Positions 19,991-26,479 of a DNA stretch of 64,000 nucleotides are shown here, one piece after another. Source of the DNA: Acidimicrobiales bacterium (GTDB lineage Bacteria; Actinomycetota; Acidimicrobiia; Acidimicrobiales; CATQHL01); NCBI GenBank assembly GCA_965116465.1, contig OZ220687.1, positions 2,564,596 through 2,628,595 of the forward strand, written 5' to 3'. The stretch's first letter is position 1, and the number at the start of each line of letters is the position of its first letter. The notes below the pieces were generated by a model. That model saw nothing but the letters and a program-made list of their open reading frames with translations, had not been told where the DNA came from and searched no databases. A program made the translations under genes and the position numbers.

Positions 19991-21451
19991 GTGACTGAAC
20001 GTGCCCTGATGATCCAGGGGACGGCCTCGGGGGTTGGCAAGTCGCTGCTTGTGGCGGGGCTGTGCCGGCTGCTGGCGCGCTCGGGGGTGCGGGTGGCGCC
20101 CTTCAAGCCCCAGAACATGAGCAACGCGGCGGCGGCCTGCCCCGCCGGCGGCGAGATCGGCCGGGCGCAGGCCCTGCAGGCGTTCGCCTGCGGCATCGAG
20201 CCGACCGTGGACATGAACCCGGTGCTCGTGAAGCCCGAGGCCGACCACACAGCTCAGCTCATCGTGTCGGGCGAGGTGCGTGGCAGGCTCGACGCGGCAC
20301 GATTCCGGGAGGACCGCCAACCGCTGCTGCCTGAGGTCCTCGCCGCATTCGAGCGTCTGGCCGGCAGCTACGACTTCATCGTGGTGGAGGGCGCCGGCTC
20401 GCCCGCCGAACCGAACCTGCGGGCCGGTGACATCGCCAACATGGGATTTGCCCGGGAGGTATCGCTGCCGGTCTGGCTGGTGGCCGACATCGACCGCGGC
20501 GGATCCTTCGCGGCGCTTCTGGGCACGGTGGAGGCGCTGGAGCCCGCCGATCGGAGGCTTGTGGAGGCGTTGCTGGTGAACCGCTTCCGGGGCGAGGCGG
20601 CCCTGCTCGACGAGGCCTTCGTCTGGTTGGCCGAGCGAACGGGGCTGCCGGTCCTGGGAGCCGTCCCGTACCTGCCCGACCTGCTGCTGCCCGAGGAGGA
20701 CGCCCCCTACGCCCTCATGGAGGGCCGGATCGGGACCGCGACGGACGAAGCGAACCGGCTTCGGGTGGGCGCCGTCCACTACCCGCGCGCCTCCAACATC
20801 GCGGATGTGGACCCGTTGGTGGCCGACCCGGCCGTGGAGTTCACGTGGCTGCGCGACCCGGCCGAGCTTGTCGGGCTCGACCTGGTGATCCTGCCGGGCT
20901 CCAAGGCCGTCGCCGCCGATCTCAACTGGCTGCGAGAGCGCGGTTGGGTGCCGGCGCTGGAGCGGCACCTGCGCTACGGCGGCCGGGTGCTCGGAATCTG
21001 CGGCGGCCTCCAGATGCTGGGCCGGCGCATCCTGGATCCTGGCGAGATCGAGGGTCCGGCCGAGACCCCTGGACTCGGCTGGTTGGACTTCGAGACTGAG
21101 ATCCAGCCGCAGAAGCTGGTGCGGCAGGTCACCGGCCGAGCGACCTGGCCGGAGGCTGTTGAGTTCTCCGGCTACGAGATCCGCCACGGAAACAGCGAGG
21201 CCGATCCCGTCATCCACCCGTTCAGCGCTCGCTCAGCCGACGGGCAGATCCTCGGTACCTACATCCACGGCCTCTTGGACCGAGCCGACTTCCGCCGCGC
21301 CTTCCTGCAGCACTGGCTCGCCTGGGACTCCGATCACGCCGAGGACCAAACCACCCGCTGGCACCGCGACCTCGACCGTCTCGCCGACACCCTCCGCGAC
21401 CACCTCGACCTGACGTATCTTGAGAAACGCGTCGGCGAGGCGGTACTTTGA
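19991..21451 (+). CDS. cobQ: Cobyric acid synthase
   Basis: N-terminal MIQGTASGVGKS P-loop and C-terminal glutamine amidotransferase GICGGLQMLG...HG. AGGAG lies upstream of GTG 19991. Confidence 0.9.
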   Translation: MTERALMIQGTASGVGKSLLVAGLCRLLARSGVRVAPFKPQNMSNAAAACPAGGEIGRAQALQAFACGIEPTVDMNPVLVKPEADHTAQLIVSGEVRGRLDAARFREDRQPLLPEVLAAFERLAGSYDFIVVEGAGSPAEPNLRAGDIANMGFAREVSLPVWLVADIDRGGSFAALLGTVEALEPADRRLVEALLVNRFRGEAALLDEAFVWLAERTGLPVLGAVPYLPDLLLPEEDAPYALMEGRIGTATDEANRLRVGAVHYPRASNIADVDPLVADPAVEFTWLRDPAELVGLDLVILPGSKAVAADLNWLRERGWVPALERHLRYGGRVLGICGGLQMLGRRILDPGEIEGPAETPGLGWLDFETEIQPQKLVRQVTGRATWPEAVEFSGYEIRHGNSEADPVIHPFSARSADGQILGTYIHGLLDRADFRRAFLQHWLAWDSDHAEDQTTRWHRDLDRLADTLRDHLDLTYLEKRVGEAVL

Positions 21452-21482: not shown

Positions 21483-22025
21483 GTGGAGCAGGTGATTCTC
21501 TACAGCTTGAACACCGAGGCGCGGACGCCCACTTGACAGGAGTGCTGCCGCGTTCGGGACTTCCTGAACGAGCATTCCGTCGAGTTCGACGACCGCAACA
21601 TCCGCCAGAGCACCGGTGCCCGTGACGAGTTGCTGGCACTGACCGGGGACCTCGTCGTGCCGACGCTCGTCGCCGGCGACCGCCAGGTGGTGGGGTTCGA
21701 TGCGGCAGCACTTGCGGAGATCGCGGGGCTCCAGCTGCCGGACGGGCCGGCGCAGAGCGCGGCGACCGCTGCAGGCCCCCCGGGGAACTCCCTCGAGGCA
21801 GATCAGGGTCGGCGGGTCATCGCCTCCGGCGACACCCTTGCCGACGACCTGCAGAGCCTCCTGGGCCGCATCAACGCGGAGCTCGACTACAACGTCGCCA
21901 AGGGCGGCACGCCGTTCCGCCAGGGGATGCACGACGGCCTTCGTTTCGCCCAGGACGCCGTGGCGGACCTGCTGACACGCCACGGCCACCCCGCCGAGGT
22001 CGAGCCCAGAGACTGGGACTTCTGA
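21483..22025 (+). CDS. Glutaredoxin-like thioredoxin-fold protein with in-frame TGA (codon 18) at the first redox position: candidate selenoprotein (UxxC), or a nonsense pseudogene
   Basis: GGGAAGGAG lies 6 nt before GTG 21483. The frame keeps high GC3 on both sides of TGA 21534-21536. Translation is VEQVILYSLNTEARTPT-U-QECCRVRDFLNEHSVEFDDRNI...VVPTLVAGDRQVVGFD, where U-Q-E-C aligns with the Grx CPYC and the cis-Pro VP is present. The track ORF 21630.. starts inside the fold. Confidence 0.45.
21537..21566 (+). other. Hairpin immediately 3' of the in-frame TGA (SECIS-like candidate)
   Basis: CAGGAG(U) 21537-21543 pairs with (A)CUUCCUG 21559-21566. The apical CCG-CGUU-CGG mini-stem starts about 12 nt after the UGA. 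Confidence 0.3.
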
Positions 22026-22116
22026 GGCTCGGTCAGGCGCAGTACCCGGGGCTTGTCGTCGGTTGCGACGGCGTCGCCGGACCGCCCGGCCGCTTGCGAC
22101 CGGTGTCCTGACCCGG

Positions 22117-22560
22117 TCAGCGCACGAGGCGGGCGATCGCCTCGGCTGCGGTGGGATACTGCGCCGTCAGCTCCTCGAGGTTGCCGAGTTCGAACCCCTC
22201 CTCGTGGTAGGGCGGCGCCATGGTGGTGCCCATCAGCGCCCACGCGCCGCTGGTGGAGGCGCCCATCCAGACGCCGGCCGGAACGGTCACGCACGGCCGC
22301 TGGCCACCCTCCAGGTCCTTGCCGAGGACGGGCGTGGTGACGCCGCCGTCGGGGTGCAGCAGCAGCATCTCCACCGCGGCACCGGCGTAGTGGTGCCAGA
22401 GTTCCGCAGCGTCCACCCGGTGCATGGCCGAGAAGTCCCCCGGCACGACCAGGTAGTAGATCGCCGAACCGTGCGCGTCGCGCCACGTCTCGGCGAAGTA
22501 CCCGCCCTCCGCCGGCAGCGACTCGAGGCCGAGCAGTTCTATGACGTCTGAGGTCCTCAT
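22117..22560 (-). CDS. Cupin-fold protein (DUF985/YML079w-like)
   Basis: 147 aa from ATG 22560. LPAEGGYFAETWRD and HRVDAAELWHHYAG are typical of this cupin family. Confidence 0.7.
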   Translation of the reverse strand: MRTSDVIELLGLESLPAEGGYFAETWRDAHGSAIYYLVVPGDFSAMHRVDAAELWHHYAGAAVEMLLLHPDGGVTTPVLGKDLEGGQRPCVTVPAGVWMGASTSGAWALMGTTMAPPYHEEGFELGNLEELTAQYPTAAEAIARLVR

Positions 22561-22656
22561 CGAATCAACCCTAAGTCCGCCAGATCGTCGGCGCGCCGAG
22601 CTGCAGATCTGGGTCACGCTCCGCCTGGCACGCTTCCGGCGGGTCGAACCATTGGG

Positions 22657-24144
22657 CTACCGGGTGCACTCGTGGCGCCGCAGATTCTCCGTTCGCCGAG
22701 CGAAGCCGCTCGGTCCGTCGTCATTATGGGAGCGCACCATCAGGGTGGCGTCGTGTCGCCCCCCGAACACGTAGCTGAAGTACCTGTCGATGGTCAAGGA
22801 CGTCTCCGTCGTCGGGTGCCAGCGGAATGACTGAGGGCGAGCACCCGCGTCCGTGCGGCGCCAGCGTGCCTGGACGAGGTAGCCGGTGACGTCCGAACCG
22901 CCGGGCGGATCCCAAAGAAACTCCACGCGTTCGGGTTGTCCCGCCTCGTCGCAGAACACGAGCAGGCGGAGGTTCCGCGGCCTGCCGGGTGCCCCCTCGA
23001 AGGAGAATTCGACAGTGGCGGGCCGTCCGGTCCCGCGGCTGTTGACCGCGGCCACGGAGAAGTATCGGACACGGCCTTCGGGGAGTCTCTCGATTGTGAA
23101 GTCCGCCGCGTGGCGACCCTCGGGTCGGGCGGGCGCGATGGTCCAGGTGGCTCGCCCGTTCCGAACGTCGGTGTAGCTGACCCGATAGCTCGTCACCCGG
23201 TCGCCGCCGTCGTCCGCCGGGGGCGACCAGTAGACGTACACCTGGCCTGCTGCGCCGTCCCACTCGGCCTGCACGTCCTGGGGAGCGCCGGGGGAGGTGA
23301 CGCCCCTGCTCGGAGCCGCGCGCTCGTCGCAGGAGTCGTGGCGGACCGCGGGGTCCCATCCTTTGGAGGATGCGTAGCGCGGTCGATAGATGAACTGCGC
23401 GCTTGCCGCGTCGCTGATGCCTGTCGGGGTCAGCGTCCGGACAGACCACTCGTACAGCACCGACTGCTGGATGTCGACGCCGAGGAACGAGGTGCCGGTA
23501 ACGGTGACATCGAGGTGCGGATCGGGCATTGACGGGACGAACTCGAACAAGAGAGCGCGCTCGCGGGTCACCGCATAGCCGAGGATCGCGGGTCCACCGG
23601 TATCCGCGGGATCCCACGCCAGTCGCACACTGTGGATACCCCCTGACCGATCGCAGATGACCGCGTCGACGTGCAGGAGTCGCGGCGCCCCGACGGTTGG
23701 AGTCTCGAAGGAGGACGAGTACAGCCAGCGCCCCTCGGATGCGGTGGCGTACGGGAAGAACCGGGACCGCGGCAGCCAAACGGACCTGTCGGGCAACTCC
23801 AACCCGAACTCCACCTTCCCTGATGACACGAGTCTCGCCTGGATGCGGATCGTCCTCCCGTGGCTCAACTCGTACGGTGACGAATACAGCCAGCGATCCT
23901 CCAGTGCGCTGCCATAGGGGAAGAACCGCAGGCGGGGAAGCCATTCTCGCTCGCCGTCCAACTCCAGTCCGAACTCGACGCTGCCGGACGTGTGGAGCCG
24001 GGCCTGGATGCGTATTCGGGAGAGACTCTCCGACACCTCCTGCGTTATGGCCGGCTCCTCAGGGGGCTCCTGAGCCGAGGTCGTGGTTGTTGCGAAGAGG
24101 CTTGCCGCGAGCACCAGCAGGGCCGCCGGGCCGAATCGCCCCAC
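22657..24144 (-). CDS. Secreted protein: 2 copies of an unrecognised ~52-aa repeat plus 3 FN3-like domains
   Basis: Start proposed at GTG 24144 ((M)GRFGPAALLVLAASLFATTTTSAQE signal peptide, GAGG upstream). Repeats RIQARLxxSGxVEFGLELxxxxxWLPRxRFFPYxxAxExRWLYSS. FN3-like segments with WxPP...Y...V..N..G patterns. Confidence 0.65.
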   Translation of the reverse strand: MGRFGPAALLVLAASLFATTTTSAQEPPEEPAITQEVSESLSRIRIQARLHTSGSVEFGLELDGEREWLPRLRFFPYGSALEDRWLYSSPYELSHGRTIRIQARLVSSGKVEFGLELPDRSVWLPRSRFFPYATASEGRWLYSSSFETPTVGAPRLLHVDAVICDRSGGIHSVRLAWDPADTGGPAILGYAVTRERALLFEFVPSMPDPHLDVTVTGTSFLGVDIQQSVLYEWSVRTLTPTGISDAASAQFIYRPRYASSKGWDPAVRHDSCDERAAPSRGVTSPGAPQDVQAEWDGAAGQVYVYWSPPADDGGDRVTSYRVSYTDVRNGRATWTIAPARPEGRHAADFTIERLPEGRVRYFSVAAVNSRGTGRPATVEFSFEGAPGRPRNLRLLVFCDEAGQPERVEFLWDPPGGSDVTGYLVQARWRRTDAGARPQSFRWHPTTETSLTIDRYFSYVFGGRHDATLMVRSHNDDGPSGFARRTENLRRHECTR

Positions 24145-24238
24145 GAGCAGCCTCAGCAGCGCCCGGTCAGCGCCCGGCTCGCTTGACGTGCAAGCGGATC
24201 GGCAGGGTGCCGTCTGGCTGCGGAGAGCCAGAGAGTCC

Positions 24239-25387
24239 TCAGAACCTGAAGTCGACCGTCGCCCACGGCCCCCGTCCGTGGCTGTTAATTGCGCGCACCC
24301 AGTAGGTGTACGACCCGGCCGTTGCGCCGCCAAGCCTGAACGGATAGACGGGGGACTCGCGCCCCGGGTTGATCCTCCCGTACCCCACGTTGGAGGCGCC
24401 GAGCGGAGAGCTTCCGATCTCGTAGCTCGTGATCGGGTCGCCGCCGTCGTTTGGTGCTGACCACGTCAGGATGACGGCGTCGCGGGCGCCGTTGAGCCTT
24501 GCCCGCAGATTCTGCGGGGCACCCGGCGGAGCGGCTCCTGGAAGCGGCGTTGCGTATTCGTCGCAGTCGGGCCACCGCCGATCGCCCCAATCGCCCCACG
24601 GCTCGGTGCCTCTGAAGAAGCTGGGTTTGAAGATGAGTTGGACCGAGGCAACGGCACCTCTACCCGCTCTGTTCAATGCCCGGACCGACCATTCGTGGAG
24701 TTCGTTCATCTGGACATCCGCGCCGGTGTATGTGGTACCTGGCACGAGATCGTCCGAGCCCGGGTCGGTGTGCACCGGTGTGTAACGCCACTCCGAAGCC
24801 CGCAGGCGAGTCACCTCGTAGGCAGTGATGCGCGTACCGCCGCTGCGGGCCGGCGGGTCCCACGACAGCCGAACGCTGTGCGGACCTCCCGCAACGTCGC
24901 AGACAACTGCTGTTACGCGGAGGTTCCGCGGTGCGCTGGCCGGTTGGCCGATCTCGTCGAGCAGCGAGAAGCGCGAGGAGAAGAGCCAGCGTCCGACCTC
25001 GACGGTCTCGTAGGGGAAGAAGCGTGCGCGCGGCAGCCACACCTGGTCGCCGTCCACCTGGAGTCCGAATTCGAGTCGGCCATCGACGAGCAGCCGGGCC
25101 TGGATCCGCACCTGCGTGCCGTCACGCATCGCGTACGGCGAGGCGAACAGCCACTGGCCCACGTTCGCGGTGGCATAGGGGAACAGGCGCACCCGCGGCA
25201 GCCATTCGCTGTCACCGTCGATTTCCAGCCCGAACTCGACCTTGCCCGATTCCACCTTGCGCGCCTGGATGCGCACCGAGGTGGCGGGAGTGTCGGACGA
25301 CTCGGCGTCCTGCGCGACCGCTGGTGAGGCGACCAGCGCACTCGCGGCGATGACAACGGCGGCAAGCGCGCCAATCCGACGGATCAT
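24239..25387 (-). CDS. Secreted protein, paralogue of the downstream gene: 2 copies of the ~52-aa repeat plus 2 FN3-like domains
   Basis: Signal peptide MIRRIGALAAVVIAASALVASPAVAQD. GGAGGGGAG upstream. Repeats VRIQARKVESGKVEFGLEIDGDSEWLPRVRLFPY.. and VRIQARLLVDGRLEFGLQVDGDQVWLPRARFFPY.. Confidence 0.7.
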   Translation of the reverse strand: MIRRIGALAAVVIAASALVASPAVAQDAESSDTPATSVRIQARKVESGKVEFGLEIDGDSEWLPRVRLFPYATANVGQWLFASPYAMRDGTQVRIQARLLVDGRLEFGLQVDGDQVWLPRARFFPYETVEVGRWLFSSRFSLLDEIGQPASAPRNLRVTAVVCDVAGGPHSVRLSWDPPARSGGTRITAYEVTRLRASEWRYTPVHTDPGSDDLVPGTTYTGADVQMNELHEWSVRALNRAGRGAVASVQLIFKPSFFRGTEPWGDWGDRRWPDCDEYATPLPGAAPPGAPQNLRARLNGARDAVILTWSAPNDGGDPITSYEIGSSPLGASNVGYGRINPGRESPVYPFRLGGATAGSYTYWVRAINSHGRGPWATVDFRF

Positions 25388-25465
25388 GTTCGTCTCCCCT
25401 CCGAAGATGATCGTGCGCTCAGATGCTAGTCAGCGAGCTCGGAGCCGGCGCCTGCCGGACAGCGG

Positions 25466-26479
25466 TCAGATGCCGCCGATGGGGCCAAGGGCTCGGCGGT
25501 AGGCGAGAGCGGCGGCGTCGGGGCCGCGCAGGTGGAGTTCCTCGGTGAGGCGGACCGGTAGCGGCACGGGGCGCTGGCTCTCCACGATCCGGCGGTCGCC
25601 CTCCATGATCTCGTGGGTGAACCCGTGGAATCCGGTTCTGTCGACGCCGAGGTCGTAGTTGCGCGACAGCCAGAGGAACAACTCGTTGGTGTTCTCGGTG
25701 GTGGGCCGGCACGCCATCGACACCACGGTGCTCTGGCCGTCGGGGGTGCCCTTGCGCAGGTGAACGGTGAAGGGCAGCCACAGGAAGTACTCCCAGTGCA
25801 CCTCGGTGCCGCTGGGCGAGTGCACCCCGCCCGGCTCGAGCGCCTTGTAGCTGACGTAGAAGCCGAAGTCGGTCTCGGTCACGTCGCAGTTGCCGACCAC
25901 GGTGCGGTCCCGGCTGCCCAGCAGGCCGTCGTGCAAGAAGGGGAAGTGCGAGACGTCCAGGAAGTTCTCGACGGTCCGGGCCGCCGAGGCCTGCCACGAG
26001 TAGCGGTGGCTGTACCAGATCTCGACGTTGGGGTCGTCCCACTCGCCGCTCGGCCACTCGGTGATAGCCCCCACCGGGTCGGCCAGTGCCACCCACACGA
26101 GTTCGTGGCGCTCGGCGGTGGGGAAGCTGTTGACCCTGGCGCCCGACGGAATGGACGAGCCCGGCTCCAGGGCGGGGATGTTCACGCAGCGCCCCTCGCC
26201 GTCGTACTGCCAGCCGTGGTAGGGGCACACGATGCAGCCCTCCGGGGTCGTCCAGCCCAGTGACAGGGCCGTCCCCCGGTGGATGCAGAGATCGTCCAGC
26301 ACGCGGGCCTGACCGGCGTCGTCGCGGTAGGCCACCAGGTGCCGCCCCAGCAACTCGAACCCGACCGGCGCGTCGGCGGTCACCTCGGCGGATTCCAGCA
26401 CCGGGTGCCAGTAGTTGGTGAGGTCGGGAGCGCGGGGCTCGATGTCGTCGAGGGTCGCAGCGGGCGCTGTCGTGGTCAT
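25466..26479 (-). CDS. Rieske [2Fe-2S] non-haem iron oxygenase, alpha/oxygenase component (VanA/KshA-like size)
   Basis: CIHRGTALSLG...CPYHGWQYD Rieske motif. 337 aa from ATG 26479, with GGGGAGGA upstream. Confidence 0.8.
   Translation of the reverse strand: MTTTAPAATLDDIEPRAPDLTNYWHPVLESAEVTADAPVGFELLGRHLVAYRDDAGQARVLDDLCIHRGTALSLGWTTPEGCIVCPYHGWQYDGEGRCVNIPALEPGSSIPSGARVNSFPTAERHELVWVALADPVGAITEWPSGEWDDPNVEIWYSHRYSWQASAARTVENFLDVSHFPFLHDGLLGSRDRTVVGNCDVTETDFGFYVSYKALEPGGVHSPSGTEVHWEYFLWLPFTVHLRKGTPDGQSTVVSMACRPTTENTNELFLWLSRNYDLGVDRTGFHGFTHEIMEGDRRIVESQRPVPLPVRLTEELHLRGPDAAALAYRRALGPIGGI

Follow-up and report, generated by a model that had tools for sequence, protein, structure and literature searches.

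What are the two adjacent secreted-looking proteins encoded on the minus strand of this genome of an uncultured Acidimicrobiales bacterium, and what is the repeat with which both of them begin? The window analysed here, a stretch of 64,000 nucleotides of contig OZ220687.1 (positions 2,564,596 to 2,628,595), contains two genes, hereafter gene 1 (product P0001) and gene 2 (product P0002), each encoding a signal peptide, two copies of a repeat and an array of fibronectin type III (FN3) domains. A preliminary description of the sequence could assign the repeat to no family. We report here that the repeat pair, hereafter the module, is a new domain family, putatively of the class of non-covalent surface-anchoring or targeting modules, absent from the curated families, the solved structures and the literature found, and that on balance it probably retains exported proteins at the envelope of the cells that produce them.

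A duplicated 55-residue repeat in two tandem paralogues

The two genes and the four repeats that they encode are as follows.

24239..25387, minus strand: gene 1, P0001, 382 aa, ATG start; signal peptide, module pair, putatively Cys-stapled FN3 and canonical FN3 (open reading frame and Pfam fn3)
22657..24144, minus strand: gene 2, P0002, 495 aa, GTG start; signal peptide, module pair, FN3a, FN3b and a second putatively Cys-stapled FN3
25118..25282, minus strand: P0001 repeat 1, residues 36-90, 112.9 bits against the repeat hidden Markov model (HMM)
24953..25117, minus strand: P0001 repeat 2, residues 91-145, 109.9 bits against the repeat HMM
23857..24021, minus strand: P0002 repeat 1, residues 42-96, 109.5 bits against the repeat HMM
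23695..23856, minus strand: P0002 repeat 2, residues 97-150, 109.1 bits against the repeat HMM

As far as the sequence can tell, these are indeed the two tandem secreted paralogues of the preliminary description: both lie on the minus strand at these positions, their signal peptides can be read, and they are 44% identical over 376 aligned positions, covering the full length of P0001. The gene call of the public collection for the window's own P0002 (P0054) also gives 495 aa, with identical repeat positions, and the orthologues of P0001 (n=18) are 79-94% identical across the module region. Each protein carries two repeats back to back. The four related copies had been recognised, but with a period of about 52 aa, which has to be corrected to 55 aa. 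In alignment A1 the four window repeats share 21 invariant columns out of 55-56 and show 56% identity to the first copy; each copy scores ~110 bits against the repeat HMM, far past chance.

The family was defined by profiles A2 and A4 as two tandem VRIxAR..G.vEFGL..W..LPxxRfFP..GrWL.SS repeats directly behind a signal peptide. Both window genes belong to the family so defined, with pair-profile scores of 204 and 179 bits, and they represent a "short-loop" subfamily (W-LPR, FPY), most paralogues having a four-residue insertion (W-GERx-LPR, FFP). The four window repeats are roughly equidistant from one another (56-62%). In six paralogues of the same genome (designated G000; 606958-609168, 1700516-1701859, 2908069-2909445, 108932-110938, 165828-168695 and 2532713-2535046), the repeats within one protein are 86-95% identical, compared with 71-80% to the repeats of any other protein, which points to intragenic homogenisation or to repeated fresh duplication.

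The module corresponds to no described domain family

The failure to place the repeat in a known family was upheld by every search made. No match to the repeat was found in the full-length proteins at E<=1 with Pfam-A (24,736 models) and NCBIfam (18,950 models), and the isolated module gave nothing against Pfam at E<=10 except one noise match at E 0.1. The module region of the diverged paralogues of the same genome likewise had no Pfam family match. Profile searches of PDB sequences returned nothing at E<=10 with A2 and a single noise match (E 1.6) with A4, and no description of the module was found in a search of the literature.

The pair was modelled with AlphaFold2, first from 29 sequences (predicted local distance difference test (pLDDT) 81.5, predicted template modelling score (pTM) 0.74) and then from a more diverse alignment of 30 sequences including paralogues of the same genome (pLDDT 89.8, pTM 0.82). 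The model of the pair is all-beta, in line with the beta-rich character expected from the sequence. The modelled repeat consists of a long beta-hairpin (VRIxARxxxxGxVEFGLx), a short third strand that ends at the conserved Trp, an irregular segment rich in Arg, Pro and aromatic residues (LPRxRFFPY) and a short fourth strand (WLF). As the pTM is high, the model suggests that the two repeats make up one all-beta domain of ~110 residues.

Foldseek comparisons of two AlphaFold2 models with the PDB, and of one with BFVD, gave nothing at E<=0.001, nor indeed anything below E 0.04. The best neighbours, none of them significant, were NanoLuc (E 0.054; template modelling score (TM) 0.34) and the N-terminal domain of FAIM (3mx7), the latter being the nearest solved fold by TM (0.43 normalised by query and 0.54 by target, with a root-mean-square deviation of 4.0 over 87 columns). 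Like the module, this FAIM domain is small (~90 residues) and all-beta; however, it comes from a human cytosolic apoptosis regulator, and at 11% identity and a Foldseek E of 0.58 the resemblance is at best topological and provides no evidence of homology. Two other resemblances were considered and rejected: that of the repeats to adjacent propeller blades of an RSL/AAL-type lectin (TM by query 0.22-0.27 for sialidases and GH43 and 0.33 for the fucose lectin 6htn, all at E>0.05) and that to a barrel of the FABP/NanoLuc type (TM by query <=0.36). Taken together, the Pfam and structural checks proposed with the preliminary description brought no confident match to any described domain family.

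The module is portable and restricted to one lineage

The distribution of the module turned out to be that of a portable unit. A pair-profile search of the genome from which the window comes, a single contig of 3.53 Mb, identified 24 open reading frames (ORFs) with the module, mostly right behind a signal peptide and in four cases at the C-terminal end. An HMMER search of 1.84 billion cluster representatives yielded 1,018 proteins at E<=1e-3. The repeat number is exactly two in 194 of 227 family proteins and four in 14 of them; the module lies inside the first 130 residues in 209/227 and at the extreme C-terminus in 12/227. In 158 of the 162 N-terminal cases it comes after an uncharged hydrophobic run. 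The module is basic (median pI 10.2, pI being the isoelectric point; above 9 in 118/162) on payloads that are acidic (median pI 5.0). Despite the presence of one sortase in the genome, an LPXTG-like signal was found in only 1 of 225 module proteins, and neither window protein has a sortase signal (P0001 ends in ...ATVDFRF and P0002 in ...RRHECTR).

The partners are diverse. In the same genome, Pfam identified RCC1-like propellers, two Amidase_3 domains, PGA_cap with VanY, PPC, SLH and FN3, and direct reading added an unnamed HExxH domain and Cys-rich tails; RCC1-type repeats are present in ~9 of the 24. Among 94 cluster representatives, the partners were RCC1 (22), LRR (20), SLH (3), fn3 (3) and Ank (2), with single cases of Peripla_BP_6, trypsin, CAP, cadherin, YkuD and Calx-beta. 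Closer homologues display further FN3, trypsin-like and LRR architectures.

Several of these architectures deserve description. One of the two Amidase_3 proteins (G000 1386098-1387876 and 1479889-1481427) carries a single internal repeat after an unassigned N-terminal region of ~190 aa, and the other carries an N-terminal pair. The sole SLH protein of the genome (G000 108932-110938) combines an N-terminal SLH, an HExxH-type domain and a C-terminal module pair. Three clustered RCC1 paralogues (G000 165828-175306) end in an unnamed HExxH domain of ~250 aa, with the terminus ...NPF[KR]DGGC, for which no Pfam match was found; the module is present in the outer two of the three and missing from the middle one. 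This middle paralogue (G000 173189-175306) was considered as a possible anchor swap and discarded as uninformative, having neither the module nor a known anchor. Lastly, three module proteins of ~260-300 aa (P0033, P0040 and the product of G000 1038934-1040145) have in common a C-terminal tail of ~110 aa that is rich in Cys, Trp and Tyr (e.g. ...CGWYDDEYKQCHN...). No Pfam match was found for the tail in the G000 protein, the sole copy scanned, those of P0033 and P0040 having been compared by eye.

With regard to taxonomy, no module was detected in 300 other genomes sampled evenly across the phylum. Of 200 further genomes sampled in the order, the three additional members of the same genus all matched (8, 13 and 22 matches), as did two genomes of other families with one match each. 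Two metagenome-assembled genomes (MAGs) reached through homologues had 25 and 34 matches, one of them being that of an Acidimicrobiales bacterium. The sample label (ROBB21...) suggests that this lineage may live as a sponge symbiont.

SLH domains were surveyed in the same order-level sample (201 genomes). Thirteen genomes of about eight other families had 7-33 or more SLH matches, and SLH was nearly absent elsewhere in the order, with 0-1 matches in each genome of the genus; no genome with at least 7 SLH matches had a module match. In the module-rich genomes SLH is all but missing, which leaves no exchange of SLH for the module to be compared there.

The module as a putative envelope anchor

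What, then, does the module do? We favour, as somewhat the better-than-even reading of these sequences, a lineage-specific domain for non-covalent retention, or anchoring, at the cell's own envelope. Both window proteins would be exported by the Sec pathway and their signal peptides cleaved, so that the mature N-terminus would be the all-beta domain of ~110 residues, followed by a short linker and by an FN3 array whose a-type domains would be stapled by disulfides. The module would bind a component of the producing cell's envelope (peptidoglycan, a wall polymer or the membrane surface) and would hold many differing exported payloads at the cell surface; in P0001 and P0002 the payload would be a surface-displayed FN3 binding array of the "eukaryotic-like" kind.

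Several lines of evidence point to envelope retention. The module occurs on 24 ORFs of one genome and in ~1,000 clusters, with many unrelated partners, and a shared address or anchor is therefore likelier than an adhesin's binding part. That the module sits terminally, behind ordinary signal peptides, points the same way, as does its fusion to enzymes acting on the cell's own peptidoglycan (Amidase_3 twice, VanY, YkuD) and to a substrate-binding protein. The latter, P0071 of another MAG (L026 7001-8689), carries the NCBI annotation branched-chain amino-acid ABC substrate-binding protein and consists of a type-I signal peptide, the module pair, a Pro/Thr linker and Peripla_BP_6; where P0071 has the module, its orthologue in the window's own genome (G000 2549281-2550582, phmmer E 8e-115) bears a lipobox (LAVMAC) with a short linker. 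The module thus stands in place of a lipid anchor in P0071, which also suggests retention at the envelope. The near-exclusion of sortase signals from module proteins, the lack of co-expansion of SLH and module in the order-level sample and the basic character of the module on acidic payloads are further indications of the same kind.

Known systems provide precedents for such an anchor. Like the module, SLH (PF00395) is a terminal, multi-copy, non-catalytic unit placed behind a signal peptide on many unrelated exported proteins per genome. However, there is no sequence relation between the two at E<=10, and no SLH match on the module: SLH repeats are helical, ~44 aa long and typically three in number, and bind a pyruvylated wall polymer, whereas the module is an all-beta pair. 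Similarly, LysM, SH3b/GW, CW_binding_1/2, PG_binding_1, SPOR and ChW are small repeats found on peptidoglycan hydrolases (e.g. Amidase_3) and on surface proteins, and the wall-binding repeats of monoderms, such as LysM, are often basic and accepted at either terminus, as is the module; yet none of them matches the module in Pfam and none is named among the Foldseek matches.

A number of observations weigh against this assignment. The basic trend fails for P0001, whose module has a pI of 5.5 (9.3 in P0002). The exchange of a lipobox for the module is a single case, and the P0071 gene has no adjacent permease genes. A few proteins combine SLH with the module, and the two might then be non-redundant anchors. 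As both SLH and the module are missing from most genomes of the order, their complementary distribution is weak evidence. The RCC1, LRR, ANK and FN3 payloads would suit a released, host-directed protein equally well, and none of the Foldseek neighbours in the PDB or BFVD hints at a ligand.

In a first alternative, the module would be a lectin-like or other ligand-binding domain directed at an external target, such as glycans of the sponge matrix or another common substrate, and the proteins would be released adhesins or effectors. The conserved irregular segment W-LPRxRFFP(Y)...GRWL-SS has the abundance of Arg, Pro and aromatic residues often seen in glycan-binding loops; the duplication would provide two equivalent sites; and the principal payloads are interaction domains of eukaryotic-like type (RCC1, LRR, FN3, ANK, cadherin). 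According to PMC11706023, fn3, LRR, cadherin and Calx-beta domains are enriched in sponge-symbiotic Actinobacteriota. The weak Foldseek neighbours also include propeller blades of sialidases and GH43 enzymes as well as a fucose lectin; however, all Foldseek matches are non-significant (best E 0.05; TM <=0.54 by either normalisation), and no carbohydrate-binding family of Pfam matches at E<=10. Moreover, fusions to amidases, VanY, YkuD and a binding protein that is lipid-anchored elsewhere would make little sense for a released lectin. We therefore regard this alternative as unlikely. The earlier proposal of an extracellular pair of binding or adhesion proteins is nevertheless retained in part: exported FN3 domains with disulfide-type Cys pairs fit it, but the repeat is likelier to be the shared anchor than the part of the adhesin that binds.

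In a second alternative, the module would dock, in the manner of a dockerin, onto one proteinaceous surface receptor or lattice (a scaffold or an S-layer-type structure), or would self-assemble. As with dockerin type I (PF00404), a small, internally duplicated address unit recurs on many secreted enzymes and binders of one organism that are otherwise unrelated; in several paralogues, the greater identity of repeats within a protein (86-95%) than between proteins (71-80%) fits a symmetric, two-faced docking unit, and the sole SLH protein of the genome bears the module as well. However, a dockerin is a ~70-aa, Ca-binding helical EF-hand pair that binds cohesin, whereas the module is all-beta, of ~110 aa, and unrelated to it by Pfam; and no protein with repeated cohesin-like modules emerged as a candidate receptor. 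Docking of this kind appears distinctly improbable. The suggestion that the pair might form a scaffold for cell-surface enzymes likewise finds no support, as the proteins lack cohesin-like repeats and no enzyme gene is linked to the two genes.

We give very little credence to a third alternative, in which the module would serve as a tag or intramolecular chaperone recognised in a dedicated export, sorting or modification step, and not as a binding domain of the mature protein: its strictly terminal position (209/227 behind the signal peptide, 12/227 at the extreme C-terminus), lineage restriction and multiple copies recall the logic of the type IX secretion system C-terminal domain and of PEP-CTERM and GlyGly-CTERM signals, but every member already has an ordinary Sec-type signal peptide, a well-folded, conserved and duplicated domain of 110 residues is unlike the known short sorting signals, N- and C-terminal placement are both tolerated as in binding modules, and no co-distributed processing enzyme turned up, none having been sought.

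Signal peptides and FN3 payloads of the window proteins

Both signal peptides, read directly from the sequence, are Sec-like, with a short basic n-region and an uncharged hydrophobic core, and export of both proteins is inferred from them. The payloads behind the module were delimited with Pfam fn3 (PF00041).

25313..25387, minus strand: P0001 signal peptide, residues 1-25, MIRRIGALAAVVIAASALVASPAVA followed by QD, with a putative cleavage site between AVA and QD (read directly)
24073..24144, minus strand: P0002 signal peptide, residues 1-24, (M)GRFGPAALLVLAASLFATTTTSA followed by QE, with a putative cleavage site between TSA and QE (read directly)
24548..24934, minus strand: P0001 FN3a, about residues 152-280, with Cys163 and Cys275 (Pfam fn3 stretch; weak Ig_Rha78A_N match at 155-245)
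24242..24526, minus strand: P0001 FN3b, about residues 288-382 (best Pfam fn3 stretch, 290-376)
23314..23688, minus strand: P0002 FN3a, with Cys164 and Cys272 (Pfam fn3; aligns with P0001 FN3a)
22996..23292, minus strand: P0002 FN3b (best Pfam fn3 stretch, residues 287-376)
22660..22986, minus strand: P0002 third FN3, of the FN3a type, with Cys398 and Cys493 (third Pfam fn3 stretch; resembles P0001 FN3a)

The count of two FN3-like domains in the 382-aa protein and three in the 495-aa protein was confirmed: fn3 matches P0001 in 2 stretches (61.4 bits, E 9.9e-17) and P0002 in 3 (60.7 bits, E 1.6e-16), both well above the gathering score of 25 bits. The additional FN3 of P0002 is of the same subtype as its first one. 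Mature P0001 has exactly two cysteines, C163 and C275, which are invariant in 18/18 orthologues, and the four cysteines of P0002 (C164, C272, C398 and C493) are invariant in 10/10 homologues. The first Cys of each pair belongs to the opening strand of an a-type FN3, and the second follows ~95-112 residues later, just beyond the domain; each pair probably forms a disulfide that staples the a-type FN3, and such disulfides in P0001 and P0002 would fit an extracellular location. A conserved Cys in each first FN3, and a second one in the inter-domain linkers, had been noticed before. Both observations stand with regard to the residues and the invariance of the partners; however, the motif VFCDEAGQ belongs to the third FN3 of the 495-aa protein, and the partner of its Cys, in the C-terminal tail (HECTR), had been overlooked.

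The FN3 "eukaryotic-like proteins" described from sponge symbionts in PMC11706023 represent the same payload class, fn3 (PF00041), as both window proteins. The passages of that source that were consulted give Pfam domain counts, and a term search of it turned up neither "signal peptide" nor "unknown function" nor anything about an N-terminal module.

Genomic context of the gene pair

As had been claimed, each gene has its own Shine-Dalgarno (SD) sequence, downstream of a catabolic and transport cluster.

25394..25402, minus strand: SD sequence GGAGGGGAG of gene 1, 6 nt before the ATG (read from the sequence)
24151..24154, minus strand: GAGG of gene 2, 6 nt before the GTG (read from the sequence)

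Gene 1 begins 78 nt past the stop codon of a Rieske/VanA_C oxygenase gene, a gap of 94 nt separates it from gene 2, and a Cupin_5 gene follows 39 nt past gene 2 on the same strand. A consensus scan of positions 22000-26000 detected no sigma-70-like promoter and no minus-strand terminator, a result of little weight given a G+C content of ~69%. A 131-aa ORF without a Pfam match (21630-22025, plus strand) lies between cobQ (19991-21451) and the Cupin_5 gene.

We considered whether the pair is functionally tied to the Rieske/VanA oxygenase and ABC transporter genes next to it, and did not retain this idea, because gene 1 has its own SD sequence and a gap of 78 nt, and because gene 2 is present only in some genomes. 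The location after the catabolic and transport cluster appears to be incidental, that is, positional only. A locus search with P0001 alone returned one Acidimicrobiales MAG. In L014 and L015, the two contigs of a single relative, gene 1 likewise follows the Rieske gene, and a second module gene at the gene 1 locus is absent in all of L013-L015. Besides the window's own genome, G479 has gene 2, and three module genes stand side by side in G374. The patchy presence of gene 2 and the three genes in a row in G374 indicate that the module family expands and contracts quickly.

Significance of the module

Sponge symbionts have repeatedly been found to be enriched in eukaryotic-like proteins, and the final location of these proteins (secreted, surface-bound or injected) is largely unknown. 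An N-terminal module common to the RCC1, LRR, FN3 and ankyrin proteins of one lineage offers a concrete handle on this question: with a single antibody or binding assay, 20-30 proteins per genome could be located at once. We propose, tentatively and with more doubt than we attach to retention itself, that the module could be the address tag of an undescribed surface-display system, in which sponge-associated bacteria would be coated with dozens of eukaryote-like domains and with their own wall enzymes by means of a fold without a solved relative and a lineage-specific envelope ligand; the FN3 pair of the window would then be displayed host-interaction proteins. As a candidate new envelope-binding family without a solved relative, the module matters to structural classification and could be useful as a display tag, and it would give a defined domain to ~1,000 clusters whose present annotation is "hypothetical" or "fibronectin type III domain-containing".

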